This document shows positions 350-51,551 of a stretch of DNA of 64,000 nucleotides, in pieces. Made by a program: the position numbers and the translations under genes. The notes below the pieces were generated by a model. That model was given only the letters and a program-made list of their open reading frames with translations. It did no database searches and had not been told where the DNA came from. This DNA comes from an uncultured Clostridiaceae bacterium (GTDB lineage: Bacteria; Bacillota; Clostridia; TANB77; CAG-508), in the NCBI GenBank assembly GCA_947647275.1, contig CANSJQ010000002.1, positions 5,795 through 69,794 of the forward strand, written 5' to 3'. The number at the start of each line of letters is the position of its first letter. Position 1 is the stretch's first letter.

Positions 350-390
350 TTGACTGCTCCTTTTCTATTTTAGTAGTTCCTTTAAAGTGC

Positions 391-422
391 AGGTCGCTTA
401 ATAATACTGCGACCCCTACAAT
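391..422 (+). repeat. Family-A GC-rich hairpin module (degenerate copy): aggtcgc-ttaataatact-gcgacccctaca
   Basis: Shares the gtcgc...gcgacccctaca arms and the cccctaca tail with the copies at 1164, 22790, 25603 and 30521. Confidence 0.5.
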
Positions 423-505
423 GTAATTTTTAAAATAGTCGTAATTAAAATTTGTAGAGTAACCTTATGTGTTTGTATATATTAAAATACATAAGGTGGA
501 TTATT

Positions 506-949: not shown

Positions 950-1163
950 ATTATCTACCTCCATTATTCTATATTGTTCTAAACTGTACTGTATGTTCCT
1001 ATATTTTACCTTAAAAACCTTAATTTTTCAAGAGTTTCATTATAATTAATTTAGATTAATATTTCTTATAAAATAAAGGAATGAGTAATACCTATTCCTT
1101 TATTTACTTTATCTGTTTATTTTTAAAATGTATTTTTGTTTTTTAACTGTCATTTAATTCTAA

Positions 1164-1212
1164 TTAGGTAGTTTCTTCGAAGGGCGGGTCGCCGATGGCA
1201 ACGACCCCTACA
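1164..1212 (+). repeat. Family-A interspersed element, full form: box1 ttaggtaRtttcttcgaag plus GC hairpin gggtcgccgatggcaacgacccctaca
   Basis: Direct read; the hairpin arms gggtcg/cgaccc are an inverted repeat. Near-identical copies at 22790, 25603 and 30521. Confidence 0.8.
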
Positions 1213-3422: not shown

Positions 3423-5180
3423 TTAATTATCTTTTACAAATGTTCCTGTTGAAATGTTTCCTATGGTTATACATCCTGTACCTCCGTTGCCTCCATTAAA
3501 CTTAATATTTCCACTAATTCCACCAGGTCCTCCACTTCCACCATTAACATTTATATAGCCTCTAGTTATATTAGATTTATAGAATATATTTATGCTTCCT
3601 CCGCCAGACGCTCCTCCGCCTGCACTCTTTGCGCTTCCTCCATTACTACCATTTGAAGTTATTGTTCCATTGTTCTTAATTGAGTTTGCAATTATTGTAA
3701 GTAGTCCTCCTGTTCCTGTCGCGCCATTATTTCCATAATACCTTCCGCCAAATCCTGTTCCTCCTGGATTACCAGCGCCTCCTCCTGCTGAATCATAGTT
3801 TTTACTGCTTCCTTTTCCGTCTCCTCCTGCTCCTCCATTTGAACTTACATTTACTCCTGCTATATCGTCAGCACCTCCACTTCCAACTCCACCAGAGTAT
3901 GATGTTCCACTTCCTCCTGCCTTTGAAGCCCTATTTATTCCTGCACCTGCGCCACCACCACCAGTTCTTCTAGCAGTTCCTGCTACTCCATTGTTCGCAG
4001 TTTTATTTACTACACCTGCTCCTCCTGCTCCTCCTATTGCTGGTACATATTCATAAGTGTTATCTTCGTTTTTGTGTAGGTATACATTCTCACCTGTTTG
4101 GTTTACTGTTCCTTTTGCTGTCATTGTTATATTTCCATTATTTGTTAATGTTCCTGCACAATATATAAACATTCCTTTTTTAGTGCATAAATATGCTACT
4201 CCATTTATTGTTGCGCTTGTTCCTGTTGGACTTATTGTTACTCCACTATTTATTGTTAAATCTCCATTATATTTTAGTATTAACATTCTTTTTTCTGAAT
4301 TAGTTTTTCCTGTTCCTGTATATTTTGTGTTACCTATTACTATCTCATTTGAAGCTTCATAATTTGCATCTTCATTATAATTATATAATTCTACTGGATA
4401 ATCAATTGTGTTTCCTTCACCATTATATGTTATTCTAAATATATAATTTCCTGATTCTAAATTATTATTTTCTACACATGCTAATATACTCTCTCCTTCT
4501 ATTACTGTATTCTCTTGTTTATATGTTACAGTATCAAGTATTGTGTGTTCTACATTAATTATAATCTCATTTCCTATACTATCTACTTGCCTTAAAGCTA
4601 CCTTTACATCTCTATTTCCTAATGCTTCTAATATTTGGTAATCATCTAATCTTATTATATTTGTATAATTAACCCATGCTGAGCTATCTCCTATCATATA
4701 TTGCTTTACTGCACTTCCTGCTTTGTAATTTACTGTTAATGCTTGTTGTGTTTCTGTTTCTCTTGTTAAATTATAATCTATCATATCTAAATAAAATTGG
4801 TTATTTATTTGTATTGTTCTTTCTATTTCTTCTCCTTTTGTATTTATTGCCTTAAATGTTAAACTTTCTTTTCCTGTTATATCTGTGTTATAGTCAAATG
4901 CTACTTTTGTTTTTCCATTACAATATAACTCCATTTCATTATTGGGATATATTATTTTTTCTATTCCATTTTCTGTATCTTCTGCTATTACTAGCATTGC
5001 TGTTTTTCCATTTACATGTTTATATACTTCATAGCTTATCTGTTTTACTATTTCTTCTTTATTGTTATTGTCTATAATCCTATCTATTACTCCTGTTCGT
5101 TTCAAAACTACTAATGTTATTGACATTACAAATAATAATGCTATTATGATTATTAAAATTATTTTCTTTTTATTTTGCAT
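3423..5180 (-). CDS. membrane-anchored Gly/Asn/Thr-rich surface protein, hypothetical (possible beta-helix or adhesin-like)
   Basis: ORF track gives 3423..5255 with a TTG start and no RBS. The internal ATG at 5180 (MQNKKKIILIIIIALLF...) is preceded by AAGGAG and opens with a signal-anchor helix. C-terminal half is low complexity (GGAGGAG..., GSGGxGG). Confidence 0.55.
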   Translation of the reverse strand: MQNKKKIILIIIIALLFVMSITLVVLKRTGVIDRIIDNNNKEEIVKQISYEVYKHVNGKTAMLVIAEDTENGIEKIIYPNNEMELYCNGKTKVAFDYNTDITGKESLTFKAINTKGEEIERTIQINNQFYLDMIDYNLTRETETQQALTVNYKAGSAVKQYMIGDSSAWVNYTNIIRLDDYQILEALGNRDVKVALRQVDSIGNEIIINVEHTILDTVTYKQENTVIEGESILACVENNNLESGNYIFRITYNGEGNTIDYPVELYNYNEDANYEASNEIVIGNTKYTGTGKTNSEKRMLILKYNGDLTINSGVTISPTGTSATINGVAYLCTKKGMFIYCAGTLTNNGNITMTAKGTVNQTGENVYLHKNEDNTYEYVPAIGGAGGAGVVNKTANNGVAGTARRTGGGGAGAGINRASKAGGSGTSYSGGVGSGGADDIAGVNVSSNGGAGGDGKGSSKNYDSAGGGAGNPGGTGFGGRYYGNNGATGTGGLLTIIANSIKNNGTITSNGSNGGSAKSAGGGASGGGSINIFYKSNITRGYINVNGGSGGPGGISGNIKFNGGNGGTGCITIGNISTGTFVKDN

Positions 5181-5373
5181 AATTTTATTTTTCTCCTTAG
5201 TTTTATATTTGTTAATTATATTATATATTTTACCAATATCATATTTTTTAGTCAATGCTTTAATTATTTAAATTAATCTATAGTTTATATAATATTTTTA
5301 ATAAAACTATTTATGGTAAGATTTTATTTATTCTTTCACTCTTCTGTAATAAATTACAGTAATTTTAGCATAT

Positions 5374-6792: not shown

Positions 6793-6838
6793 GCAAAACT
6801 CACTTGAATTACAAGTGAGTTTTGCTATATTTTTTTGT
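6793..6838. terminator. rho-independent terminator hairpin gcaaaactcacttg-aatt-acaagtgagttttgc plus T-run
   Basis: Perfect 14-bp stem followed by tatattttttt. Confidence 0.55.
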
Positions 6839-7036: not shown

Positions 7037-7085
7037 ATAAAAATGAGATTTTTGGGTGCGTCCCAAAAATCTCATTGTTTTTTTA
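7037..7085 (-). terminator. rpoC terminator (aatgagatttttggg-tgcg-cccaaaaatctcatt, U-rich on both sides)
   Basis: Hairpin begins directly after the rpoC stop codon at 7083-7085. Confidence 0.6.
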
Positions 7086-10000
7086 TTCTGCTACTACTTC
7101 TTCAGAAGTTTCTTCTGCTTCAGTTGTTTCTTGTTCTTCGTTTTCTGTGCTTATTTTTGTGTTTTTGTATTTTGCTAGACCTGTTCCTGCTGGTATTAGT
7201 TTTCCTATTATTACGTTTTCTTTTAGTCCTATTAGTTCATCTACTTTTCCTTTTATTGCGGCTTCTGTTAATACTCTTGTTGTTTCTTGGAATGATGCGG
7301 CTGATAGGAAGCTGTCTGTTGCTAGTGATGCTTTTGTGATTCCTAAAAGTACTCGTTTTCCTGTTGCTGGGCGTTTTCCTTCTTCTATAGCTTTTTCGTT
7401 TATGTCTTGGAATTCGTACATGTCTACTAGTGAACCTGCAAATAGGTGTGTATCTCCGTTGTCTTCTACTCTTACTTTCTTAAGCATTTGTCTACCTATT
7501 ACTTCTATATGTTTGTCGTTTATATCAACACCTTGGTTTCTATAAACTCTTTGTACTTCTTGTACTAAGTAGTTGTATACTCCTTCTGGTCCTTTTATTA
7601 AAAGTAATTCGTTTGGATTTATTGAACCTTCTGTAAGTGGTTGACCTGCAACTACTTCGTCTCCTTCTTTTACTTTTAGTTTTGAACCAAATGGTATTAC
7701 ATATGTTTTGCTGTCGTCTTTTGATGTTACTACAAGTTCTTTCTTTTTCTTGTTTTCTTGTAGTTTAACTTTACCATCTATTTCTGTTATTATAGCAACA
7801 CCCTTAGGTTTTCTTGCTTCAAATAACTCTTCAACCCTTGGAAGACCTTGTGTAATGTCGGCAACACCAGCAACACCACCAGAGTGAATTGTTCTCATTG
7901 TAAGCTGTGTACCTGGCTCACCTATTGATTGTGCAGCTATAATACCAACTGCTTCACCAATGTCGGCTTCTTTTTGGCTAGATAGACCCATACCATAACA
8001 TCTTGAGCATACTCCGTTTTTTGTTCTACATCCAAATACTGAGCGCACTCTTACTTTTTCTATTCCAGCACTTACTATTTGGTCTGCCATACTTGCTGTA
8101 ATCATTGTGTCTGGAGTTGCTATTACTTCTTTTGTTTCTGGGTTTATTATATCTTCTAATGGGTATCTTCCTGTTATTCTTTCTTCTAAGCTTTCTATTA
8201 CTTGGTTTCCATCTTTTATTGCTGTAAGTTCTATTCCGTCGTGTGTTCCACAGTCATGTTCTCTTACGATAATATCTTGTGAAACGTCTACTAATCTTCT
8301 TGTTAAGTATCCTGAATCGGCTGTTCTTAACGCTGTATCTGAAAGACCTTTACGAGCACCATGGGCAGATATAAAGTATTCTAGAGCATCTAGACCTTCC
8401 CTGAATGATGACTTGATTGGTATTTCTACTGTTCTACCTGTTGTACTTGCCATAAGTCCACGCATACCTGCTATTTGTTTTAATTGGTCTAAGTTACCAC
8501 GGGCACCTGAATCTGACATTATATATAATGGGTTTAATGCATCAAAGTTGTTTTTCATGGCAACACTGACATCACTTGTAGCTCTTTCCCATATTTTAAT
8601 TACTGATTGGTATCTTTCCTCTTCTGTAATTAAACCACGTTTATATTGTTTTAATACATTCTCTACTTGACTAGCTGCATCTTCTAATATTGTTTTCTTT
8701 TCTTCTGGAACTTTTGCGTCTTCTATTGAAACTGTTATACCACTTGTTGTTGAATGTTTGAAACCTGATGCTTTGATGTAGTCTAATAGTTCTGCTGATC
8801 TAGATAAACCATGTTTTTCTATACATTTTCCAACTATTTTTCCTAACATTTTCTTATTTGTTACAAAGTTGATTTCTGGTTCAAATTCATTTTCTGGATT
8901 TGTTCTATCTACAAAACCTAGGTCTTGTGGTATTTCTTTATTAAATATTATTCTACCAACTGTTGTTTCAACTTTCTTATGTCTTTCATTTCCTTCTTCG
9001 TCTACTTTACTCATTCTTACAAATATTTTAGCATGCATTCCTACTTCTTTATTTTCGTAAGCCATTATTGCTTCTTCTGGAGATGAGAAGTAATTTCCTT
9101 CTCCTGTTTCTCCTTCTACTTCCATTGTTAGGTAGTAGTTTCCTAATATCATATCTTGTGATGGTACTGTTACTGGTTTACCATCTTGTGGTTTTAATAG
9201 GTTGTTTACTGATAACATTAGGTATCTTGCTTCTGCTTGTGCTTCTGGTGATAGTGGTAAATGTATAGCCATTTGATCACCGTCGAAGTCAGCGTTGAAG
9301 GCTGTACATACTAATGGGTGTAATTTTATTGCTCTACCTTCTACTAATACTGGCTCAAATGCTTGTATACCAAGTCTATGTAATGTTGGAGCACGGTTTA
9401 ACATTACTGGATGGTCTTTAATTACTTCTTCTAATATATCCCATACTTCTGGGCGTAATCTTTCTACCATTCTTTTTGCATTTTTAATGTTGTGTGCTAA
9501 TCCTCTTTCTACTAATTCTTTCATAACGAAAGGTTTGAAAAGTTCTACTGCCATTTCTTTTGGAACACCACATTGATATATTTGAAGTTCTGGTCCTACA
9601 ACTATAACTGAACGTCCTGAGTAGTCAACACGTTTTCCTAGTAAGTTTTGACGGAAACGTCCTTGTTTACCTTTTAGTAGGTCTGATAGAGATTTTAATG
9701 CTCTATTTCCAGCACCTGTTACTGGTCTTCCTCTTCTTGAGTTATCTATTAAAGCGTCTACAGATTCTTGTAGCATTCTTTTTTCATTTCTTTTTATGAT
9801 TTCTGGTGCCCCAAGTTCTATTAATCTTTTTAATCTGTTATTTCTGTTTATAACTCTTCTGTATAAGTCGTTTAGGTCTGATGTAGCGAATCTACCACCA
9901 TCTAATTGTACCATTGGTCTTAACTCTGGTGGAATTACTGGTACTACATTCATTATCATCCATTCAGGTCTATTTCCTGATAATCTGAATGATTCTACTG

Positions 10001-10637
10001 TATCTAATCTTTTTATTAATTTTGCTTTCTTTTGCTCACTAGCTTTTTCTAGTTCTTTCTTTAAGCTTGCTGATAATGCTTCTAAGTCTATTTCTCTTAA
10101 TAGTTTTTCTAATGCTTCTGCTCCCATTTCAGCTTTGAAACTGTCATAACCATATTTTTGAACAGCCTCTGTGTATTCTTTTTCTGTTAATACTTGATAT
10201 TTCATTAATCCTGAAGTACCTTTATCTGTTACTATATATGAAGCAAAATAAACTATTTTTTCTAGGTTTCTTGGTGAAATATCTAACATTAAAGCTATTC
10301 TACTTGGTATACCTTTGAAGTACCAAATATGTGCAACTGGCGCTGCAAGCTCTATGTGTCCCATTCTTTCACGTCTTACTTTAGATTTAGTTACTTCAAC
10401 ACCACATCTATCGCAGACAATACCTTTATAACGAACTCTTTTATATTTACCACAATGGCATTCCCAGTCTTTTGTTGGTCCAAATATTCTTTCACAAAAT
10501 AGTCCATCTTTTTCTGGCTTTAGAGTTCTATAATTAATAGTTTCTGGTTTTTTAACTTCACCTTTTGACCATTCTCTAATTTTTTCGTCTGATGCTAATC
10601 CAATTTTTATTTTATCAAACATCTCTAATTCATCCAC
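7083..10637 (-). CDS. rpoC: DNA-directed RNA polymerase subunit beta'
   Basis: 1184 aa with canonical RpoC blocks (Zn-finger CHCGKYKR..., NADFDGDQM catalytic motif). GTG start at 10637 with GGGGAGG 9 nt upstream. Confidence 0.95.
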
Positions 10638-10667
10638 TATTTTTAGCCTCCCCTTAATTTTATATTG

Positions 10668-10702
10668 TAGGGGCGATTATTAATCGCCCGTGCTACAACG
10701 GC
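10668..10702 (+). repeat. GC-rich palindrome ggggcgatt-att-aatcgccc followed by gtgctacaacgg
   Basis: Perfect 8-bp inverted repeat in the rpoB-rpoC spacer. Confidence 0.4.
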
Positions 10703-10726
10703 TTTTATTTTAGAGGTTGGAAAATC

Positions 10727-10788
10727 TGGTAAATTCTTCGAAGTATTTACCTTATATTCTAACTTCTAACTTCTAACTTCTGTTTTGG
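10727..10788 (+). repeat. Family-A long variant: box1 (ggtaaattcttcgaag) + tatttacc + tandem (ctaactt)x3
   Basis: Same architecture at 21190-21255. A related gaagtt tandem run in reverse orientation lies at 62395-62420. Confidence 0.6.
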
Positions 10789-10883
10789 CTTTCATTAAAA
10801 TTCAAAAATAATCCACTGCTGAGCAATTCCTTTTTGTCTATTTTTTTATTTATTTTGAAAATATTTAATTAATTTGATTGGTT

Positions 10884-10938
10884 AGGGCATAATTTGGTAA
10901 ATTCTACTAGGTATTCCTTACCAATCAAGCCCCTACAT
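10884..10938 (+). repeat. Family-B element: gggcataatttggta...taccaatcaagcccctacat (imperfect terminal inverted repeats)
   Basis: Copies at 18259-18310 and 22690-22743 with the same termini. Confidence 0.7.
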
Positions 10939-10993
10939 ATTTTTAAAATTTTCTGTTATTTTAAATATTTGCATTAATTATAGTTTCGTATAT

Positions 10994-11025
10994 CCAGGTC
11001 GCCACCTTCGGTGACCCGCATACCC
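10994..11025 (+). repeat. Family-A hairpin-module variant ccaggtcgccaccttcggtgacccgcataccc
   Basis: gtcgcc...ggtgacc inverted repeat, 14 nt upstream of the rpoB stop. Confidence 0.45.
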
Positions 11026-11038
11026 TTTAACCTAAGTC

Positions 11039-14000
11039 TTATTCTAGTCCGTCATTTTCTAAATTGTCTTCTGCTAAGTCTGTGTCGAAAATTTCTGCAT
11101 CGTCGTCGTCATCTAACTCTGTGAATAATTCGTCGTCGTCCATAGCTTCTTCGTCAACATCTAAAAGTATTTCCTCTGTGTCTTCATCTATCTCTATATA
11201 GTTTTCGTCTAATTCATTTTGTTGTAATACATCTTCTCCTATTTTTGCTTCTTCGTAGTCTATTCCTTCATCTATATGTTCTTGTAGTTCTAATTCTTCG
11301 TTTTCTTCTGAATATAAACGTACGTCTAAGCCTAATGATTGAAGTTCTTTTATTAATACTTTGAAACTTTCTGGTACGCCTGGTTCTGGTACATTTTCTC
11401 CTTTAACAATTGCTTCATATGTTTTAACACGTCCAACAACGTCATCTGATTTAACTGTTAACATTTCTTGAAGTGTATATGCTGCTCCATATGCCTCTAA
11501 TGCCCAAACTTCCATCTCTCCGAAACGTTGTCCACCGAATTGTGCTTTACCTCCTAGTGGTTGTTGTGTTACTAGTGAGTATGGTCCAGTTGAACGAGCA
11601 TGTATTTTGTCATCTACTAAGTGATGTAGTTTTAACATGTACATTACACCAACTGTTACTGGGTTATCAAATTTTTCACCTGTACGTCCATCTATTAATA
11701 TTGATTTTCCGTCTTCTCTTAGGCCTGCTTCACGTAGTAATTCTTTTATTTCTTCGTCTGATGCACCATCAAATACTGGTGTTGCAACTTTCCATCCTAG
11801 TGCTTTTGCTGCCATACCTAAGTGAACTTCTAAAACTTGACCTAAGTTCATACGTGATGGTATACCTTGTGGATTTAATACTATATCTACTGGTGTTCCA
11901 TCTTCTAAGAATGGCATGTCTTCTACTGGAAGTATTCTTGAAATAACACCTTTGTTACCATGACGTCCAGCCATTTTGTCTCCAACTGATATTTTTCTCT
12001 TTGTTGCTATATAACAACGTATTACTTGATTTACACCAGGTCCTAATTCATCTGAATTATCTCTAGTGAATATTTTAACATCTACTATTGTTCCTGCTTC
12101 TCCATGTGGTACTCTTAAAGATGTATCTCTTACTTCTCTTGCTTTTTCTCCAAATATTGCACGAAGTAATCTTTCTTCTGCTGTAAGTTCTGTCTCTCCT
12201 TTTGGAGTAACTTTACCTACTAGAATATCTCCTGGTCTTACTTCTGCACCTATTCTTATAATTCCGTTTTCGTCTAGGTCTTTTAGTCCATCATCACCAA
12301 CATTTGGTATATCACGTGTTATTTCTTCTGGACCTAATTTTGTATCACGACATTCACAATCATATTCTTCTATATGTATTGATGTGTATACATCTTCTTT
12401 AACTAATCTTTCACTAATTAATATAGCATCCTCATAGTTGTAACCTTGCCATGTTGTAAAGGCAATAAGTACGTTTCTACCTAATGACATTTCACCGTTC
12501 TTTGTAGCTGGTCCATCTGCTAATATGCTTCCTGCTGTTACTTTTTCTCCTCTTACAACTACTGGTCTTTGGTTTATACATGTACCACCATTTGTTCTTT
12601 TAAATTTACGAAGTTTATATGTGTCTATTTCTCCTTTTTTATTTTTAACTTTAACTTCGTCACTGCTTACTTTTTCTACTACACCGTCATTTATAGCTGT
12701 TACTGTAATTCCTGAGTCTTTTGCTGCTCTATATTCTATACCTGTACCTACTATTGGAGATTCTGGCATTAATAGTGGAACTGCTTGACGTTGCATGTTA
12801 GATCCCATAAGTGAACGTTTAACGTCATCATGCTCTAAGAATGGTATCATGGCTGCTGCAACAGAAACTAATTGTTTTGGAGATACATCAACATAGTCTA
12901 CTTGTTCTCTATCTACCTCTGTTATTTCTGTTTTGTTACGTACTTTAATTCTCTTGTTTACAAATTTTCCATCTTTATCTAATGGCTCAGATGCTTGAGC
13001 TATGATGTAATTATCTTCTTGGTCTGCTGACATGTATTCAACAATATCTGTTACTTTTCCTGTTTCTTTATCTACTTTTCTATATGGTGTTTCAACAAAT
13101 CCATATTCATTTATTATAGCAAATGATGAAAGTGCTGAAATTAAACCGATATTTGGTCCTTCAGGAGATTCAACTGGGCAAAGTCTTCCATAGTGTGTAT
13201 AGTGAATATCACGAACTTCGAAGCCTGCTCTTTCTCTTGATAAACCACCAGGTCCTAAGGCTGAAATTCTTCTTTTATGTGTAAGCTCTGATAATGGGTT
13301 TGTTTGATCCATAAATTGTGATAATTGTGAGCTTCCAAAGAATTCTCTAATTGATGATGTTATTGGTTTTGTGTTTATTAATGTTTGTGGTGTTACTACG
13401 TCTAAGTCTTGTATTGTCATTCTTTCACGAACAACTCTCTCTAATCTTGTTAAACCAATTCTAAATTGATTTTGTAGTAATTCTCCAACACATCTTATAC
13501 GTCTATTTCCTAAATGATCTATATCATCTATTGTTCCTATTCCATTGTCTAAGTTTAATACATAGTTTATTGAAGCTATAATATCTTCATTAGTAATGTG
13601 TTTAGGTACTAATTCTTCTTTTCTTTCAGATATTACTTTGTGTAAATCTTTTTTGTCAGTTGTATCTAATATAGATTTTAATACTTCGTAATTTACTTCT
13701 TCTTTGAAGTGTAAGTCACTTATATCAACATCTGTTACAACTTTATAAATATTTACTGTTCCATTTCCTATAATTCTTACTTTTTTATCATTTACTTTTA
13801 CATCTACTATATTTAAACCTGTATTTTGTATTTCTTCTGCTACTTCTTTTGATATTGCAGAATCTTTTTCTACTAATACTTCTCCTGTAGATGGATCTAT
13901 AATATCTTCAAATGCTACTTTTCCAGCTATTCTTGTTGCTAAACTTAATTTTTGGTTGAATTTGAATCTACCAACTTTTGCTAGGTCATATCTTCTTTCA

Positions 14001-14779
14001 TCAAAGAATAGACCATTAAATAAGTTTCTTGCAGCGTCTACTGTTGGAAGTTCACCTGGTCTTAATTTTTTGTAAATTTCTATTAATGCTTCATCTTGAG
14101 TTTTAATAGTGTCTTTTGCTATTGTAGCTACTATTTTAGCTTCTTCTCCAAATAGAGACACAATTTGCTCGTCTGTTGTTAAACCTATTGCTCTTAATAA
14201 ACATGTTACTGGTATTTTTCTTGTTCTATCTACCCTTGCCCAGAATACGTCGTTTCCATCTGTTTCATATTCTATCCATGCTCCACGAATTGGCATAACT
14301 GTTGATGTAAATACTTTCTTACCTGTTTTGTCAAATTCATATGCATAGTAACATCCTGGTGAACGTACTAACTGACTAACTACAACTCTTTCAGCTCCAT
14401 TTATAATAAATGTTCCGCTTTCAGTCATTAATGGGAAATCTCCAAGATAAATTTCTTGTTCTTTTATTTCTCCTGTTTCACGGTTAATTAAACGTACCTT
14501 TACGTGTAATCTTGTAGAATATGTAGCATCTCTTTCTTTTGCTTCTTCTACTGTATATTTAGTTTTTTCTTCCATGTAGTAATCGAAAAATTCAAGAACT
14601 AAATTACCTGAGTAGTCCACTATTGGTGAAATATCTTTTAATACTTCTCCTAACCCTTCTTCTACGAACCAGTCGTATGAATCTTTTTGGACTTTAATAA
14701 GATTTGGCATCTCAACAAAATCGCCAATTTTTGCAAACGTTTTACGTGTGCTTTTTTCGTTTTTGATATCTTTTATCAA
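11039..14779 (-). CDS. rpoB: DNA-directed RNA polymerase subunit beta
   Basis: 1249-aa ORF with canonical RpoB blocks. The ORF-track GTG start at 14788 overlaps the AGGAG RBS. TTG at 14779 (AGGAG + 7 nt) is more plausible, giving MIKDIKNEK... Confidence 0.9.
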
Positions 14780-14820
14780 AACAATCACTCCTAAATAAAA
14801 TTTAAGCAGAAAAAAAATTT

Positions 14821-14886
14821 GTCAGGGGACACCCCTTACCCTTTTGTCACTCCCACTTGGGATAAGGAATGTCCCCTACCCTTGTG
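14821..14886 (+). repeat. Family-C-like palindromic element in the rpoB leader (ggggacacccc...gtcccc; terminator-like ggggtgtcccc + U-run on the transcribed strand)
   Basis: Sits about 40 nt upstream of the rpoB RBS. On the minus strand it reads aaggggtgtcccctgacaaatttttttt. Confidence 0.45.
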
Positions 14887-15102
14887 AATAAGTGTTCAAA
14901 TAGTTATAGTATTCTCCTAACTTATACTTTAGTGAATTGAATTTATTATAAAAAGAAGTCCTTCTCGTAATTAATTTTATATTATAAAAACCTCCCCTTC
15001 CTGCTCATAAAAAGATTGATTTTTACATATAGAATTAATACAATTCCTCTTCTTTTCAAATTACGTAAACATTAAAATGGGCAAATAGCCCTATACTATT
15101 TT

Positions 15103-15132
15103 AGTATACTTTAAAAAGTATAAGCTTGTCAA
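15103..15132 (-). promoter_or_regulatory. candidate sigma-A promoter for rpoB (-35 TTGACA, 18-nt spacer, -10 TATACT)
   Basis: Minus strand reads TTGACAagcttatactttttaaagTATACT. Would give a ~300-nt leader containing the element at 14821-14886. Confidence 0.35.
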
Positions 15133-18258: not shown

Positions 18259-18310
18259 AGGGGCATAACTTGGTATTCCTATATGATTTCCCTACCAATT
18301 AAGCCCCTAT
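18259..18310 (+). repeat. Family-B element ggggcataacttggtattcc...ccctaccaattaagcccctatat
   Basis: Same termini as 10884 and 22690. Confidence 0.7.
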
Positions 18311-18344
18311 ATTATACAAATATTTCTTAATTTTAAAATTTATG

Positions 18345-19524: not shown

Positions 19525-20410
19525 TTAATTACATTCTTTAAAAATTTTCATTAAAAGCCAATCAATAGTCATATCATAATTACTGTTACTATTTATTCTC
19601 TTTTTCGCTTCTTCTACGTATTTTATACAATTTATCTTTTGTATTTGATTTGTCTTTAATAATAGTATATTTATATAATCTAATAAATCATATATATTTT
19701 CTTTACTTTTGTATAATAATGGTGAATTATTTAATATATATACTAAATCTTTTTTATCTATTTGTTCTAATATATTTTCTATTTCTTCGTATTCTTGTTT
19801 GTTTTTTTGTATTTTTAATATTTTTCCAATACTTCCTCCTGCATATGTAACCATATTAATTATACTATTATCAATTGTATTCTTTTTAATATATTCTATA
19901 ATTTCTTCATCTTTTAGTTTATTAAAATTTATTTTTATACATCTAGATCTTATGGTATTTAACAATTTATTTTCATTTGATGCAATTAATATAATTGTAG
20001 CATATTCTGGTGGTTCTTCTAATACTTTTAACAAACTATTTTGAGCTTCCTTTGTCATAGTATCACTATTATTTATAATATATACTTTTCTACTTGACGT
20101 TATTGGCTTTTCACAAATTTTTTGTCCGCATGTTTCTTATTTGTTCAATTTTTATAGTTTTTTCTTCATTTTCTATTATTATAAAGTCAGGATGGTTATC
20201 ATTTCCAAATTCTAAACAAGATTTACAGTTGTTGCATTTCTCTGATTTATTTTCGCATAAAATCATTTTTGAAAATTCTTTTGCAAAAAGGCTTTTTCCT
20301 ATTCCTTCTATTCCTAAAAATAAATAACTGTGTAAAATATTATTTTGTTCTATACACTTTCTTAATAGTTCTTTTGTTTTTTCGTTTCCTATGATATTCT
20401 CAAAGCTCAA
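19525..20410 (-). pseudogene. holB: DNA polymerase III delta' subunit HolB, split by a +1 frameshift in a T6 (A6 on coding strand) homopolymer at ~20118-20123
   Basis: N-terminal ORF 20111..20410 (...IKIEQIRNMRTKNL*) and C-terminal ORF 19525..20058 (MTKEAQNSLLKVLEEP...). Removing one A gives the continuous ...EQIRNMRTKICEKPITSSRKVYIINNSDTMTKEAQNSLLKVLEEP, which matches the HolB consensus. Confidence 0.75.
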
Positions 20411-21073: not shown

Positions 21074-21189
21074 TTTCTAATTTCCTCTCTTGTATTATTA
21101 TGACATATAAATTATAATTCTTATTTAGTTTTTTTTCAACTATTTTTTTTGAAATTGAGGTTATAAGTTAGATGTTGGATGTTAGATTC

Positions 21190-21255
21190 TTAGGTAATCT
21201 CTTCGAAGTATTTATCCTATTTTCCTAACTTTTAACTTTCAACTTCTATTTTGTT
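21190..21255 (+). repeat. Family-A long variant: ttaggtaatctcttcgaag + tatttatcc + (taactt)-like tandem
   Basis: Abuts or overlaps the walK-like stop codon (21246-21248). Parallel architecture to 10727-10788. Confidence 0.6.
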
Positions 21256-33414: not shown

Positions 33415-34158
33415 TTATAATTTTACGCCAACTACTTTTCTAATATATGAATAAGAACTATTCCCCCATCCACTCTCATTACTATTTGTAGTCATCAAAA
33501 TAGAGTTAGTATCTATATCCATTTTGATAGTAGCCATTAAATAATTTGTTCCATGTGTATAATCAGCAATCATTTCATAAGACTCACTTGTATCAAAAAC
33601 TACATTTCCAATATTATTTGCTGCAGTATAATATACTAGTAAAAAATCATAATCTTTTATATTTTTTTCTAATTTAATATCTTGAGTTCCAGATTCATTA
33701 CTTGACCATAGTATTTCTTTTTTATCTTTAACATCTGCAACTTTTACTCCATTTATACTTGCCAATTGTAGTGATGAATTTATTTCAAATTCATATGGAT
33801 ATTTATTCAATTTTGTAAATATAGAATTTGGATTTTCTCCTACTTCATATTTTATACTTGCCATTTGGCTTTTTTCAGTTACATATGTTATTTCACTATC
33901 ATTTTTTAATATTTCTGATAATTCTTTTAATGTTGGCATTTTTTGCTTTTCAGCATAGTTATTCATTTGCGCTGTTGTTATTTTTAAGTTAATTATTTCT
34001 GTTGCTGTTTGTTTATTAGTTGCTTCTTTTGCATCATTTGCTCTTGTTAATATTCCATTATTTCCTAAACTTAAATATATTGCTAAACTTACTAATATTA
34101 TTAATACTACTATTGTTATTACTAATGATATTAGAGTTATTGCTTTTTCTTTTTTCAT
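33415..34158 (-). CDS. secreted/membrane-anchored protein with degenerate prepilin-like N-terminus (MKKEKAITLISLVITIVVLIIL); C-terminal domain unknown
   Basis: N-terminus resembles a class-III signal (KKGFTLIE...) with G to A and E to S substitutions. Paralogous N-terminus in 51634..53130. Confidence 0.5.
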   Translation of the reverse strand: MKKEKAITLISLVITIVVLIILVSLAIYLSLGNNGILTRANDAKEATNKQTATEIINLKITTAQMNNYAEKQKMPTLKELSEILKNDSEITYVTEKSQMASIKYEVGENPNSIFTKLNKYPYEFEINSSLQLASINGVKVADVKDKKEILWSSNESGTQDIKLEKNIKDYDFLLVYYTAANNIGNVVFDTSESYEMIADYTHGTNYLMATIKMDIDTNSILMTTNSNESGWGNSSYSYIRKVVGVKL

Positions 34159-34300
34159 TTGTATCCTCCTTTATGATACTTTTATTATAAAAGAATTATA
34201 TCTCCTATTATTTTTAAAGTCAATATTGCTCATGATACTTTCGTCATTCTTTCTTTTGTTTTTTGTATGACATAATTGTGTAATAATTTAAGATGGTTTT

Positions 34301-42352: not shown

Positions 42353-42431
42353 TGGAATTAATTGGAAATAATGCCTTATGTTATTGTTTTGCTTGGCATT
42401 TATTTTTTCAATTCACACGGAGGATAAAGAT

Positions 42432-43193
42432 ATGTTAAGTTTTGTATTATGTGATGATAATCAATCTATTTTGGATAGGTTATCTAAAATTTTGGATTCT
42501 ATTTTTTTAGAAAATAATATTTACGCAGAAATAGTATTTACTGCTAATAAACCAGAAGAGCTATTAAATTATATTAAGTCAAATAATGTAGATGTTTTAT
42601 TTTTAGATATTGATTTAAAATCAAATATTTCTGGAATTGACTTAGCTACTAAAATAAGAGAATTTAATAAAGATGTTTATATAATTTTTACAAGTGCTCA
42701 TTTAGAATATATCTTAATTGCCTATAAATGTAAAACTTTTGATTTTATTCCCAAACCCATTTCAAAAGAACGTGTGGAAGAAACAATACTTAGACTTATG
42801 GATGACATAAATAGTGATGGTAATACTACATCTTTTATACGAATTGACAGTAAAAACACAATAATTAATCAAGATAGTATTAACTTTATCAAAAAGGATG
42901 GTATGAAATTAGTCTTTTACACAGACACAAGAATCTATGAAGCTTATAATTCTTTTAATAAAATTTCTAATGAATTACCAAAAAACTTTGTCAGATGTCA
43001 TAAATCATACATTGCTAATGTTAATAAAATTAGTAATATAAACTCCAATAACAATTTAATTATTTTTAATACAAAGAATAATTATAATGAAATTAAATGT
43101 AATATTGGACCAAAATATAAAAATAATTTAATGGAGGTTTTAAAAAATGGAAATTTTTCAGACAATTTGGGCAGATTTAACAACGGAGAATGA
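42432..43193 (+). CDS. LytTR-family response regulator (AgrA-like)
   Basis: Receiver domain (LCDDN..., DVLFLDIDL) plus C-terminal LytTR DNA-binding domain. ATG at 42432 with a GGAGGA RBS; the ORF-track start at 42378 is less likely. Confidence 0.8.
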   Translation: MLSFVLCDDNQSILDRLSKILDSIFLENNIYAEIVFTANKPEELLNYIKSNNVDVLFLDIDLKSNISGIDLATKIREFNKDVYIIFTSAHLEYILIAYKCKTFDFIPKPISKERVEETILRLMDDINSDGNTTSFIRIDSKNTIINQDSINFIKKDGMKLVFYTDTRIYEAYNSFNKISNELPKNFVRCHKSYIANVNKISNINSNNNLIIFNTKNNYNEIKCNIGPKYKNNLMEVLKNGNFSDNLGRFNNGE

Positions 43194-44493
43194 GGTGTTA
43201 ACTACACTCATAGGAATTCCTTTTGTATTTTTGGAAGGTTTTATCTCTATGCTTTTATTTACGACATTACTAAATGTTAAAGCAAATAAAAATCAAAAAA
43301 TATTATATGTTGTTATTGCTTCTATATTTAGTATTTTTAGTAGCATGATACTTTCTAATCCATTTAATACTTTTGCTAATATGGTTGTAGTATTTTTATC
43401 AATACTTCTAATCTTTAAAACTAATATTTTAAAAGCATTTATATGTTTATTTTTTCCAACTATTATTGCTGCTCTTGTTGAAACAGTTATAGGTAATTTA
43501 TATCCTTTAATATTTGGAATTAATTACTGTTCTGCTTTTAATATTCCTTTTCATAGAATTTTTGCAACAAGCACAGTATATTTTATTATGTTTTTGATAT
43601 ATTTATTAGTAAAATACTTAAAGTTGAATATATCTAAACTTCAAATTTTAGATAGAAAAAGGAAAATATTATTAATTTTAAATATTATATTTGGAATCAT
43701 ACTAATATGTATGCAATTATATATAATTACTTTTTATGTTTCTAATTTGCCATTTTTTATCGCAATATTAAGCATTATTAGTCTATTTTTATATTTTTCT
43801 ATAAGCTTATATACAACGTTTACTTCTTCAAAATTAGAAACTACTTATATTAGCTTAGAAGAAGCTCAGTTATATAATAAAACTTTAGAAATACTACAAG
43901 ATAATACAAGAGCATTTAGACACGACTTTACTAATATATTGTTAGGCATGACTGGATATATGGATAATAATGACATGGAAGGTTTAAAGAAATATCATAG
44001 TCAATTACTTGATGATATTAAACAAGTTAATAACTTAACAACTCTTAGCCCTACATTAGTTAATAATCCAGCAATATATAATATACTTGCTTCAAAATAT
44101 CATAAAGCTGATAATTTAGGTATTAAAATTAATTTAGAAGTATTTTTAGATTTAAATGATTTACATATGAAAATTTATGAATTTACTAGAATATTAGGTA
44201 TACTTATGGATAATGCTATTGAAGCAACCTCTGAGTGTGAAGATAAAATAATTAATGTATCTATTAGAAAAAATAACAGAAAACATATGCAATTATTGCA
44301 AATAGAAAATACATATAAGGATAAAGAAATTGATACTGAAAAGATCTACGAAAAAGGTTATTCTACAAAGAAAGGAAATACTGGACTTGGATTATGGGAG
44401 GTAAGGCAAATTTTAAAGAAAAATAACAATTTAAATTTGTATACTTCTAAAGATGAAACATATTTTTCTCAACAATTAGAAATATATTATTAA
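43147..44493 (+). CDS. AgrC-like sensor histidine kinase (6-7 TM + HATPase_c, HPK10 type)
   Basis: Polytopic N-terminus, FRHDFTNIL H-box, G-box GLGLW; GGAGG RBS. Confidence 0.75.
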   Translation: MEIFQTIWADLTTENEVLTTLIGIPFVFLEGFISMLLFTTLLNVKANKNQKILYVVIASIFSIFSSMILSNPFNTFANMVVVFLSILLIFKTNILKAFICLFFPTIIAALVETVIGNLYPLIFGINYCSAFNIPFHRIFATSTVYFIMFLIYLLVKYLKLNISKLQILDRKRKILLILNIIFGIILICMQLYIITFYVSNLPFFIAILSIISLFLYFSISLYTTFTSSKLETTYISLEEAQLYNKTLEILQDNTRAFRHDFTNILLGMTGYMDNNDMEGLKKYHSQLLDDIKQVNNLTTLSPTLVNNPAIYNILASKYHKADNLGIKINLEVFLDLNDLHMKIYEFTRILGILMDNAIEATSECEDKIINVSIRKNNRKHMQLLQIENTYKDKEIDTEKIYEKGYSTKKGNTGLGLWEVRQILKKNNNLNLYTSKDETYFSQQLEIYY

Positions 44494-44540
44494 AAAATTA
44501 AACAAGATAGACTATGCTATCTTGTTTTTATTTTTACTTT
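44494..44540. terminator. bidirectional terminator (aacaagatag-actatg-ctatcttgtt flanked by A/T runs) between convergent agrC-like and agrD
   Basis: Perfect 10-bp stem. Confidence 0.6.
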
Positions 44541-44544
44541 ACTA

Positions 44545-44664
44545 TTAATCTTTTTTTATTAAAGATGCAGGCATTTTTGGTTGATGCATTACACCAAATA
44601 TCCAACAAGCTGTGTTTGTAGATTTAGCATATTTCTCTGCTATTTTTGCTAATAATTTTATCAT
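44545..44664 (-). CDS. agrD: AgrD-type autoinducing-peptide precursor (39 aa): MIKLLAKIAEKYAKSTNTACWIFGVMHQPKMPASLIKKD
   Basis: Strong RBS AAGGAGGA. Sits immediately downstream of agrB. Amphipathic leader, single Cys for thiolactone (CWIFGV), clostridial-type HQP recognition tail. Absent from the ORF track. Confidence 0.75.
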   Translation of the reverse strand: MIKLLAKIAEKYAKSTNTACWIFGVMHQPKMPASLIKKD

Positions 44665-44722
44665 AACAATTTCCTCCTTAGTTTAATATATATCAAAGTA
44701 TCGCCGGCCAATACTTTAATTT

Positions 44723-45370
44723 TTATATTGAGCTACTTTCTTGAGCTTTTAAATATTCTTGATATCCATATTTATTTTTTGTTAATTTGTATGCTACGCT
44801 TGTAATAGAAATACTTTGTATTGCTGTCCCAAATATTAATAAATTTGCAATTATTTTATTTGGTATAAATATTGCTCCTAACATATTTATACTTAAAAAA
44901 ACATATGATAATATCTTTTTTACTCTTCTTTCCTTTTTTGTTAATATTGGTAAATTTTCTGTATCTGCTGGTGCATATATACTTACTAATATTATTCCAA
45001 TTATCCAAATAGATATAATAGTAATTATCTTCACCAAGTCATTTTGGAATGTGTACATTGTACTTAATATCGCATTTCCACAATAAACAATATTTGTACA
45101 AATAAAACATCCCAAATGTGTTTTTAAATGAAAGCCTCCACTACACACTTTGTATGGTAGTATTAGAAAAAATGCAAATATTGTTTGCCACCATAAACCT
45201 AGTATAAGTCCAATAGAAAACATTAAAAATATTTTAGGTACTTCACCTATTATCAGCTGCATTCCATACATTATCACTTCTGCTCTTTCATCATCTATTT
45301 CTGGCATGCTTTTTCTTATCTTATTTGTTAAATACTCACAAAATTTATCTATCATGTATTCACATCTCAT
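44723..45370 (-). CDS. agrB: AgrB (AIP-processing membrane peptidase)
   Basis: 215 aa, polytopic; catalytic region ...ILPYKVCSGGFHLKTHLGCFICT... matches the AgrB His/Cys motif. Confidence 0.8.
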   Translation of the reverse strand: MRCEYMIDKFCEYLTNKIRKSMPEIDDERAEVIMYGMQLIIGEVPKIFLMFSIGLILGLWWQTIFAFFLILPYKVCSGGFHLKTHLGCFICTNIVYCGNAILSTMYTFQNDLVKIITIISIWIIGIILVSIYAPADTENLPILTKKERRVKKILSYVFLSINMLGAIFIPNKIIANLLIFGTAIQSISITSVAYKLTKNKYGYQEYLKAQESSSI

Positions 45371-47188: not shown

Positions 47189-47343
47189 ATCTTTCTCCTT
47201 TTATTTTCTGTACATTATTATAACAAATTATTTTCTATATTTCAACTTTGTATGTTAATCAATAAAAAATTGTAGAGTGTATAAGTTAAATTCTCATATA
47301 CTCTACAATTTTAATTAAAATTTATTTAGTTATAAATTTAATT

Positions 47344-47544
47344 TTATAAAGTTATTAATAAATTTATAAAATTAGATACCATACATAAATCAACAACGAT
47401 TAATATTGTTGTTAGTGCTAAAACATTTATAATGAATTTATTACCTTTGTATATTTGCAACAGTTTTTTTATTGCTTTCTTTCCTTTAAAACCTATTTTC
47501 TTTCCATATTGTACATTTAAAACAATATCTTTTGTGTATTCCAT
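47344..47544 (-). CDS. small membrane protein (66 aa), hypothetical
   Basis: AGGGGGA RBS 7 nt upstream; C-terminal TM helix. Confidence 0.4.
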   Translation of the reverse strand: MEYTKDIVLNVQYGKKIGFKGKKAIKKLLQIYKGNKFIINVLALTTILIVVDLCMVSNFINLLITL

Positions 47545-47818
47545 AAAAAAATCCCCCTAAAAATTTATTCTCATTAAATATATATTCCTATATATAATAT
47601 TTTATGAAATAAATCGTATACAAAATTATTGCATATTTTCTCATATTTAGATAACATTTATTATTATTATATAAAAGGTTACAATAGAACTGTTTTTTTG
47701 ATAATTTTATTATTTATAAGAATACTCTTTAGAAATACAAAAATATATAGTGATTGTACCAAGTGATAATTTTATCGTCAAAAAGCTCTGTCTTTATTGA
47801 CTTTTTTCTTCATAAATA

Positions 47819-48090
47819 TTGACATATTTGTATATAATATATATAATATATATAATATAAAGTAATTTTTATGCTATGAAGATGAAAGTTTATTATAAGT
47901 TCCTAAACAGAGAATAAAGGTGAATGCGCTGAGAGCCTTTTTAGAAGAATGTAATAAATGAAACACATTGGAGCAATTTTTTAAAGTGGAAAGTAATGTT
48001 TTTTAACATTTATCTTTCAAGTTAGGGTGGCACCGCGGAAATTATTTCGTCCCTGCATTTATGCAGTTGGACGATTTTTTGATTGTAATG
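47819..48090 (+). promoter_or_regulatory. sigma-A promoter (-35 TTGACA 47819-47824, -10 TATAAT 47842-47847) plus T-box riboswitch leader of aspS
   Basis: Conserved T-box sequence aGGGTGGcACCGCGg at 48024-48037, followed by a terminator hairpin (cgtccctgcatttatgcagttggacg + tttttt) at 48048-48086. Specifier codon not identified. Confidence 0.7.
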
Positions 48091-48336
48091 AGAAAATACT
48101 TTTATTATATAGGTAAACTAGCTTGTTACCTAGTAGTACTTAAATTGTATTTTTTCTACATCAAAAAGTTCGTCTTATTCTGCTATTTGCAAAATTAGAA
48201 AAAGTCTAATTTTGTTTGAAGTCTAAAACTTAGAAATCCAAGGTTGTGCACACTTAATTTTTTATTATATATTATTAAATCTTCCAACCTCACAACTTCT
48301 AACTTTTAGATTTCTAATAGGAAAGGAGTGTTTTTT

Positions 48337-50931: not shown

Positions 50932-51212
50932 TTGAATATCCTCCTTTTTAATATCAAATATTTTTTGTTACTTCTTTATTATACCACTTTATTAAATCAA
51001 AAGCAATGTTTTACATAAAATATATTGCTTTAATCCATATACTTGTAAGTTATACGTCCCATAATTCTCTCTTGTTTTTATTACACTCCCTTTTTTGACA
51101 TATATTATTTGACTTCTTTGATACTAAATCACTCAGTGTTCTCCTTAAAGATACACTCCTCTGGATTTTTTAGACTATATAAAATATATCTAAAATGAAG
51201 TATCGAAGTGAG

Positions 51213-51360
51213 ACTAACACCACACGGAAACTATTGTTGCTGTTAACATATCCTGTGTTGTTGTTGAAAGCAAAACTACTTGTATTCGTGCCATTGTTGT
51301 AATTATCGACCTCGTTTGAAAACTGGGTTAGATGAGTTTACAAAGTTAGAGTAGTAACAG
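51213..51360 (-). repeat. degenerate duplicate (~75% identity) of the last ~150 nt of the FGE-domain gene (compare 51552-51700)
   Basis: Revcomp aligns: ...aacccagttttcaaacgaggtcgataattacaac... versus ...aacccagttttcatacgtggtcggtttttactac.... Both would end in ...SFRVVL(I/V). Confidence 0.6.
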
Positions 51361-51551
51361 TTTAATCCTCAATATATATCATTTTCGCAAATTAATTATG
51401 AAAGATATAGCTACATTTCATACACTCACGCATGTATTGTATGATGCTTTTGCATGGGCATTCTAATAACACATATGTCCTAGTCTAGTTTGCCCATGCC
51501 TCTATATTTTTTACAATTTTCTTATCAAGTATCAAGAAATAAAGTCACTTA

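Follow-up and report, generated by a model that had tools for sequence, protein, structure and literature searches.

REP-like and MITE-like hairpin elements clustered in the rpoB-rpoC spacer of an uncultured clostridial lineage

The genes for the β and β' subunits of RNA polymerase (rpoB and rpoC) are separated by an exceptionally long spacer in the 64,000-nucleotide stretch of contig CANSJQ010000002.1 (assembly GCA_947647275.1; uncultured Clostridiaceae bacterium, CAG-508) that was analysed here and is referred to as the window in the following. The spacer harbours a cluster of mobile hairpins resembling repetitive extragenic palindromic (REP) sequences and miniature inverted-repeat transposable elements (MITEs), i.e., elements of an already known kind at an unusual place and in an uncultured lineage. 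Judged from their sequences, three of the four repeat units represent REP-type hairpins, two of them carrying the tag GTAG and one decayed, and the fourth a MITE-like long palindrome. Small, non-autonomous, mobile palindromic repeats have probably colonised a native intercistronic spacer, where they would form part of the rpoBC transcript and have a neutral to mild effect.

The minus strand carries all genes of this region (Table 1), and the gap between rpoB and rpoC (10638-11038) spans 401 bp, 203 of which are occupied by the four repeat units. No sense-strand open reading frame (ORF) was detected in the gap, and no ORF of at least 40 aa is contained in it. Among 80 fetched loci with relatives of RpoB, 74 from diverse bacteria allowed the stretch between rpoB stop and rpoC start to be exactly measured, yielding a median of 71.5 bp, a 95th percentile of 191 bp and a longest spacer outside the window's species of 230 bp. 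The preliminary description of this DNA had reported a spacer of about 400 bp packed with four repeat units, and each unit that it named was recovered at its place. For rpoB, TTG at 14779 is likely the true start, resulting in a protein of 1246 aa (P0001, 1246 aa); since the gene is called from this TTG, the 1249-aa RpoB had no exact-sequence match in the database, which was settled via homologues.

Along the direction of transcription, a family-A hairpin is followed by ~50 nt of AT-rich sequence, a family-B hairpin, a single-copy core, a long palindrome with heptameric arms, a GC palindrome and the rpoC ribosome-binding site, the end of the GC palindrome lying 8-9 nt upstream of the latter. 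The motif GTAG (GT(A/G)G) stands directly beside the stem in all GC hairpins except for the decayed family-A copy of the spacer, which reads CCAGG in place of GTAGG and has two mismatches in its stem. The tags comprise GTAGGGGCGATTA at 10667(+) and GTAGCACGGGCG at 10696(-) beside the GC palindrome, GTAGGGGCTT on the sense strand of family B, and GTAGGGGTCGCC in the canonical family-A copies. According to PMC3733652, GTAG defines the largest superfamily of REPs and is the cleavage site of RAYT transposases. The family-B hairpin of the spacer folds with -20.0 kcal/mol on the tag strand versus -14.8 kcal/mol on the other, and the GC palindrome with about -17 to -18 kcal/mol irrespective of the strand. 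Per unit, the more stable strand reaches -12 to -20 kcal/mol (z from -3.0 to -4.8), and the RNA of the whole spacer folds into four separate hairpins (z = -3.9). Being GTAG-tagged and stably folding, and with the family-A hairpin associated with RayT-like ORFs elsewhere (see below), the GC hairpins of the window fit the REP kind.

The long palindrome is centred on a motif termed box1 (GGTAAATTCTTCGAAGTATTTACC, 10728-10751), flanked by GGTTGGA-type arms on one side and three CTAACTT units on the other; Tandem Repeats Finder reports a perfect tandem of period 7, (TTCTAAC)x3.6, at 10757-10781. The arms of the palindrome are inverted, it occurs twice in the window (Table 1), and it resembles hairpin elements of the MITE type, but neither a target-site duplication nor a parent element could be recognised. 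The spacer as a whole does not have the arrangement of a bacterial interspersed mosaic element (BIME): its REPs belong to different families, are irregularly spaced by ~50-100 nt, and have a non-REP palindrome and the native core between them. Likewise, a REPIN doublet is absent from the window's spacer, neighbouring REPs being of different families and one of them decayed. Rfam 15 yielded no match in the spacer or the rpoB leader, even at E up to 1, and only two tRNAs at gathering threshold in the whole window.

Table 1. Coordinates of the rpoBC genes, signals and repeat elements in the window
Feature	Position	Strand	Basis	Remarks
Terminator-like 15-bp hairpin	7042..7076	minus	terminator scan	directly after rpoC stop
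rpoC (RNA polymerase β')	7083..10637	minus	Pfam	
rpoC ribosome-binding site AAGGGGAGG	10647..10655	minus	sequence	GTG start 9 nt downstream
GC palindrome GTAG-GGGCGATTATTAATCGCCC-GTG-CTAC	10664..10700	both	pattern, folding	GTAG on both strands
Long palindrome with 7-bp tandem arms around box1	10710..10782	plus	folding, Tandem Repeats Finder	
Native single-copy spacer core (…TAGACAAAAAGGAATTGCTCAGCAGTGGATTATTTTTGAATTTTAATGAAAGCCAAAA), ~100 nt	10783..10879	minus	alignment of relatives	
Family-B REP	10880..10940	minus	25-nt pattern, folding	GTAG-tagged hairpin (GTAGGGGCTTGATTGGTAAGG...CCAAATTATGCCC, sense strand)
Family-A REP hairpin variant	10993..11026	plus		opposite orientation to all other family-A copies
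rpoB (RNA polymerase β)	11039..14788	minus	Pfam	
Long rpoB-leader hairpin (GGGGACA...TGTCCCC)	14809..14880	minus		followed by T-run, then rpoB ribosome-binding site
Sigma-70-type rpoBC promoter, TTGACA-18-TATACT	15103..15132	minus	promoter scan	11/12 matches
Further GTAG-tagged hairpin (GTAGGGGTCGCAG...GCGACC)	385..423	minus		downstream of rplI
Canonical family-A unit (box1 + GC hairpin + CCCCTACA)	1154..1212	minus		between gdpP and rplI
Third family-B copy	18262..18312	minus		
Second heptamer-armed box1 palindrome	21157..21250	plus	folding	
Second repeat cluster	22690..22838	minus		family-B 22690-22743 and family-A 22780-22838
Family-A unit in ORF with GH94 catalytic domain	25593..25651	minus		in-frame reading VGVAAFGDP
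Family-A hairpin at meeting point of two ORFs	30529..30557	minus		ORFs 30444-33107 and 25946-30475

The units of the spacer recur across the window. The canonical family-A hairpin pattern has four further matches and the 25-nt family-B pattern three, two of them outside the spacer (18288 and 22719), versus 0.00 expected from shuffles in either case; box1 has eight matches versus 0.57 expected. Overall, 12 such elements were found in the 64 kb, which include 10.45 kb of intergenic DNA; ten of them are extragenic, and they are clustered, the presence of four within a single 401-bp gap having a Poisson probability of about 1e-3. The giant GH94 gene (glucan phosphorylase/synthase-like) is broken into three ORFs between 24757 and 33107. 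Arrays of 7-bp units also occur elsewhere in the window, namely (ATTATTC)x5 at 22844-22879, which adjoins a family-A REP, and (GGAAGTT)x4.7 at 62404-62436, which stands alone; ATTATTC-like arrays likewise flank REPs in the metagenome contigs L161, L176 and L194, and heptamer arrays seem to accompany such repeats. When related loci were searched for more perfect arrays of heptamers, the element of the rpoBC spacer was the sole place where they occurred.

Comparison with relatives, for which contigs were fetched along a gradient of RpoB identity from 100% to 90%, revealed a spacer of highly variable length (Table 2). The independent assembly L201 (GCA_949003065.1) has a spacer identical to that of the window, and L042, the GTDB representative of the species, carries the same four units in a spacer about 99% identical. 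It differs by two more heptamers in one palindrome arm and by a family-A hairpin with a perfect 8-bp stem and a loop flipped relative to the window, changes that are expected of slippage-prone and hairpin-forming repeats.

Table 2. Length of the rpoB-rpoC spacer in the window and in related loci
Locus	RpoB identity	Spacer
Window, L201	100%	401 bp
L042	99%	415 bp
L202	97%	450 bp
L204-206	95%	432 bp
L212	94%	538 bp
L207	93%	216 bp
L209	92%	126 bp
L214-216	90-92%	about 130-170 bp
L211	91%	348 bp
L003	83%	230 bp
L002	80%	211 bp

Beyond the species, the set of elements changes from lineage to lineage. The family-A variant of the spacer is limited to the window's species and absent in relatives at or below 97% RpoB identity; the family-B element is present in L042 and L202 and absent in L204, L207 and L209, and the GC palindrome is present in L042 and L204 and absent in L202, L207 and L209. 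The two arms of the heptamer palindrome comprise 3+1 units in the window, compared with 3+3 for L042 and about 6+6 for L204, and its position is taken in L202 and L212 by a palindrome with GAATAAT arms. An unrelated hairpin element of ~95 nt directly follows the rpoB stop in L202, L204 and L212; an inverted REP doublet, i.e., the same REP twice with a short spacer, is located right after the rpoB stop in L212 and a doublet also in L213, and another large palindrome was found in the spacer of L211. Since the element sets around the shared core differ by lineage, the spacer represents a recurrent insertion site with turnover, and the patchy occurrence of the elements among relatives lends indirect support to their mobility. 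Repeated independent insertions, on both sides of the core and in different lineages, would mean that the site either tolerates or attracts such elements. Spacers of 126 bp and of 538 bp accompany the same essential genes, and the operon can hence do without the elements. A long spacer devoid of repeats was not what relatives displayed; rather, spacer length follows the elements carried. GTAG hairpins were also sought in other long rpoB-rpoC spacers (L048, L031, L023 and others), where none were found and ordinary hairpins occur.

The ~95-nt element may have a source close by. In the relatives at 95% RpoB identity (L204-206), a Y1 transposase cassette is located 360 bp upstream of rpoB and the ~95-nt element at L204:9750-9845; the cassette (L204:4800-5680) consists of a gene for a 226-aa Y1 transposase with C-terminal extension, flanked by 17-bp inverted repeats (GGGGACGGAGATTTTTG). 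The termini of the ~95-nt element (TGGGGACGG...CTGTCCCCA) resemble those of the cassette, of which it may be a non-autonomous derivative.

That the spacer or its flanks represent an assembly artefact or arose from a chimeric join has hardly any probability. The source is a metagenome-assembled genome of an uncultured lineage, repeats attract mis-joins, and conspecific assemblies do disagree at window position 6833/6834 and in the region upstream of 15108. The spacer itself, however, is concordant in three assemblies (window, L201 and L042), the latter two being independent of the window, and related spacers with common elements occur in many samples; a chimeric origin of the spacer, which the preliminary description had named as a potential pitfall, was thus rejected. 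Homology to L042 stops at the rpoB promoter of the window (position 15108), which is homologous but diverged, and since the break falls at a homologous promoter, the upstream divergence resembles recombination rather than a random mis-join.

Besides the rpoC ribosome-binding site, which is largely kept across all relatives (invariant part GG.GGCTAA), the core is the sole spacer segment common to the window, L202, L204, L207, L209, L212 and L215. Its invariant positions (TAGACA...ATTG...CAGCAGTG) are kept in relatives of about 92% RpoB identity or more, and traces of the core are found in L002 and L003. The native part of the spacer would accordingly comprise this ~100-nt single-copy core together with the ribosome-binding site. 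The core occurs once in the window and lacks a usable -35/-10 pair, which ruled it out as a repeat or a promoter. A role as a native site for the processing or regulation of the rpoBC message is possible.

The signals flanking the two genes suggest that rpoBC forms an autonomous two-gene operon with its own promoter, leader and terminator (Table 1). The promoter match lies ~315 nt upstream of rpoB, and promoter and downstream leader are kept in L042 and L204 despite different upstream genes. The leader (14809-15132, minus) has a small hairpin at its beginning and a long one at its end, which together with its T-run resembles an attenuator; owing to a loop of more than 8 nt, it escaped the simple terminator scan. 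The long leader hairpin is present in L042, L201 and, with changes, in L207; in L204, its place is taken by another hairpin. A GTAG adjacent to it raised the possibility of another REP, which was rejected because the hairpin is kept at the same place in L207, where the motif reads GGAG.

Within the spacer, the terminator scan detected no hairpin with T-run on either strand of 10638-11038. The tails following the spacer hairpins, UGGAUAUACG, UAACCAAUC, AAAAUAAAAGCC (heptamer-armed palindrome) and AAUAUAAAAUU (GC palindrome), do not include a U-tract, and the hairpins are therefore not intrinsic terminators. The promoter scan of the spacer gave no match above 9/12. Separate transcription of rpoC from an internal promoter is highly improbable: in the AT-rich 401-bp spacer, the sole sense-strand match (TTGATT-16-TAGAAT, 10928-10901, 9/12) is weak and sits in the mobile family-B element, promoter-like matches in the region number 37 versus 36.2 in shuffled sequence, the core holds no acceptable -35/-10 pair, and no terminator precedes it. 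With neither U-tract hairpins nor a convincing internal promoter, read-through is the default expectation; rpoB and rpoC are likely co-transcribed, and the hairpins would then be part of the mRNA.

The family-A hairpin GGGTCGCCGAnGGnnnnnACCCCTACA was found in at least 120 metagenome contigs (L081-L200) with GC contents from 25% to 70%, and its 27-nt hairpin GGGTCGCCGAgGGCGgCGACCCCTACA is nearly unchanged in contigs from human gut, termite gut and other samples, where a second inverted hairpin often adjoins it. Hairpins related to the GC palindrome were detected in L149, L161, L176, L192 and L194. Classical REPs are species-specific, and the breadth of the 27-nt hairpin is therefore unexpected. 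Among the matches listed, the hairpin is located inside an ORF for an IS200-like Y1 transposase in four contigs (L096:5447-6022(-), L149:533-1042(-), L091:4669-5436(-) and L084:1590-2246(+)). The hairpin-bearing ORF is assigned to Pfam PF01797 (Y1_Tnp), scores 67.6 bits against the NCBIfam model REP_Tyr_transpos (REP-associated tyrosine transposase; cut-off 80), and has at least 7,572 homologues, some of which are named 'REP element-mobilizing transposase RayT' by JGI.

RayT-family transposase genes, namely the four above and those of the proteins P0121-P0240, carry REP hairpins at two fixed places of their own coding sequence. At site 1, about 40 aa before the HUH motif, a sense GTAG hairpin reads 'VG....GDP' or 'CRGG..'; at site 2, directly after the HUH motif, an inverted hairpin reads 'G.P...PT' or '..PPLQ'. 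The peptides at these sites vary among homologues, as if each gene contained its own REP. In a rough regular-expression count over 119 homologues, site 1 was recognised in 91, site 2 in 94 and both in 74. No description of a REP pair inside the RayT coding sequence was found by keyword in the REP/RAYT papers that were searched.

Colonisation of the spacer by REP-type inserts would have involved cutting and moving of single-stranded DNA by RayT/RAYT tyrosine transposases, and the transcribed repeats would fold as four separate hairpins within the rpoBC mRNA. By analogy to REPs in operons, the likeliest effect would be neutral to mild, e.g., local RNA processing or protection from 3' exonucleases. 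Several points weigh against such a largely neutral colonisation by mobile repeats. Neither RayT nor Y1_Tnp was detected in the 64-kb window (Pfam, 44 ORFs), nor a RayT-clade match in 345 kb of DNA from the clade, and because of this absence we infer rather than observe mobilisation by a cognate RayT in this genome. The family-A copy of the spacer has no intact GTAG tag, and the heptamer-armed palindrome has none at all and may be an unrelated kind of element. Moreover, co-transcription and a mild effect on expression enter as assumptions, and that many lineages have insertions in the same essential operon could be due to selection instead of tolerance.

In an alternative reading, the hairpin load acts as an adaptive regulator, by attenuation or by differential stabilisation or processing of the mRNA, and sets a β:β' ratio tuned by gain and loss of elements in each lineage. 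REPs and BIMEs in operons have been proposed to stabilise upstream mRNA or to attenuate transcription (PMC3733652). Other bacteria commonly have hairpins between rpoB and rpoC, insertion recurs at this site in many lineages, and the GC palindrome is placed just upstream of the rpoC ribosome-binding site. Yet the spacer hairpins are devoid of U-tracts, the presence of the same essential genes beside 126-bp and 538-bp spacers marks the elements as dispensable, and element types vary by lineage, suggesting opportunistic insertion. Overall, such regulation appears unlikely, and the variation between lineages would argue that any effect is tolerated rather than required. Rather speculative, and quite unlikely as a whole, is a combined scenario, in which the rpoB-rpoC region of the clade is a preferred landing site for hairpins moving as single strands and the hairpin load (126 to 538 bp) an evolvable control of the rpoB:rpoC message; linked to it, the inverted pair of own REPs around the HUH motif would represent a self-targeting architecture of the RayT clade.

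A further alternative concerns the strand on which the heptamer-armed palindrome might act, namely the one antisense to rpoBC, as an antisense RNA hairpin or a single-stranded DNA structure. When the arms of L042 are aligned, five out of five sense-strand mismatches are A.C and hence G.U on the antisense strand; the L042 element folds with -46.7 kcal/mol antisense versus -23.0 kcal/mol sense, and the copies in the window with -22.6 versus -14.8 (spacer) and -20.0 versus -12.7 kcal/mol (21157-21250) on plus versus minus strand. Slippage of one unit can, however, yield a perfect tandem arm, and the asymmetry may simply stem from a single mutated unit having been amplified; since the mismatches are thus not independent events, little weight was given to the asymmetry. 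The promoter scan revealed no promoter facing that way, and selection against an over-stable mRNA hairpin would produce the same asymmetry, leaving an antisense function very improbable. Mostly neutral colonisation of the spacer by mobile repeats is preferred over these alternatives.

Among known systems, the closest likeness is to the REPs and BIMEs of Enterobacteria and Pseudomonas, which are short, GC-rich, imperfect palindromes with GTAG beside the stem, dispersed, mostly extragenic and clustered. They are often located within operons and co-transcribed, as would be the case here, and an association with RayT-like Y1 transposase genes is seen here in metagenome contigs. The present elements differ in their host, an uncultured Clostridia lineage of 28% GC, and, unlike in BIMEs, unrelated hairpin families are mixed in one cluster that lacks the regular alternating Y/Z arrangement. 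In contrast to classical REPs, no RayT was seen in the DNA covered, and the hairpin is common to contigs of 25-70% GC. The inverted REP pair of L212 resembles the REPIN doublets of Bertels and Rainey; the window's spacer itself forms no REPIN.

As small non-coding palindromic or tandem elements between operon genes, presumably co-transcribed with these, with possible long RNA hairpins and strain-variable presence, the spacer units also resemble Correia elements (Neisseria), ERIC/IRU, RUP/BOX, RPE of Rickettsia and mycobacterial MIRU. Unlike these, they share no sequence similarity with them, have arms of 7-bp tandem units with lineage-specific sequence, and lack a definable target-site duplication. 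Like the attenuator/RNase III site of the E. coli rplKAJL-rpoBC operon, they would place structured non-coding RNA in the transcription unit of RNA polymerase genes. The E. coli element, however, is a dedicated regulatory site between rplL and rpoB, whereas the window has dispersed repeats without U-tracts between rpoB and rpoC, an attenuator-like hairpin with T-run in the rpoB leader, and an own promoter of rpoBC.

Genes for ribosomal proteins and elongation factors that could accompany rpoBC (rplK/A/J/L, rpsL/G, fusA and tuf) were not found anywhere in the 64-kb window; of these, the preliminary description had noted the absence of rplL/rplJ upstream of rpoB and of rpsL/rpsG/fusA downstream of rpoC. 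All relatives of at least 80% RpoB identity displayed this detached state, as did many loci of Oscillospiraceae, Christensenella and Anaerococcus, while Clostridium, Bacillus and others keep the classical gene order. Being common to relatives and other families, the detachment is of old date and nothing unusual in this part of the Clostridia, and it is not linked to the repeats. Hence, it is neither recent nor special, and the proposed accumulation of repeats at rearrangement breakpoints did not hold: the adjacency of rpoB and rpoC is intact everywhere, and the elements are simple insertions flanking a conserved core.

The comparison of synteny with close relatives that had been suggested revealed flanks of rpoBC that differ even between them. 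Downstream, gdpP-rplI-dnaB directly follow rpoC in L002, L204, L207, L209 and L211; in the window's species and L202, an amidohydrolase gene is inserted downstream of rpoC, and a 610-aa ORF (3423-5255) in the window only, being missing in L201. At window position 6833/6834, L042 and L201 have about 511 extra bp (192-aa ORF) between rpoC and the amidohydrolase gene. Upstream of the rpoBC promoter, a Tim44-like gene was found in the window, L201 and L202, a pilin-like gene in L042, the Y1 transposase cassette in L204-206, and others elsewhere; the genes upstream of the rpoB promoter of L042 are entirely different from those of the window.

Further observations pertain to other parts of the window. 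The gene for the δ' subunit of DNA polymerase III (holB, 19525-20410(-)) is broken up into ORFs of 99 and 177 aa, as it is in L201, and forms one ORF of 301 aa in L202, indicating a frameshift/pseudogene or an error common to both assemblies. A direct repeat of 161 nt (75% identity, copies 343 bp apart) spans 51209-51712, with copy 1 in a 700-bp non-coding gap (50932-51633) and copy 2 over the 3' end of the ORF 51634-53130(-), whose 498-aa product has no Pfam match. Positions 34079-34172 and 53042-53135 encode the near-identical hydrophobic N-termini and ribosome-binding regions of two ORFs (79% over 94 nt); a third member of this ORF family is located upstream of rpoB in L042 (8767-9200), the N-termini resemble signal or pilin-type leaders, and none of the three members has a Pfam match. 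Non-coding stretches of 1,139 bp (47189-48327) and 225 bp (57966-58190) precede aspS and leuS, respectively, without a T-box or other Rfam match at gathering threshold. An agr-like quorum-sensing locus (42378-45370) comprises genes for AgrB (44723-45370, minus), a LytTR response regulator (42378-43193) and a GHKL histidine kinase (43147-44493).

The idea that the position of rpoBC in this lineage goes back to a recent rearrangement is corrected by the present analysis. The more original leads lie at its side, i.e., a single REP hairpin across very different GC contents and REP pairs embedded in RayT genes. For the lineage itself, the spacer offers a practical marker for strain typing in an uncultured gut bacterium, and its variants form a natural series for testing the effects of REP-like hairpins on polycistronic mRNA. 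Even the most conserved, essential bacterial operon can tolerate recurrent invasion by mobile hairpins, with a more than four-fold variation of spacer length among close relatives.

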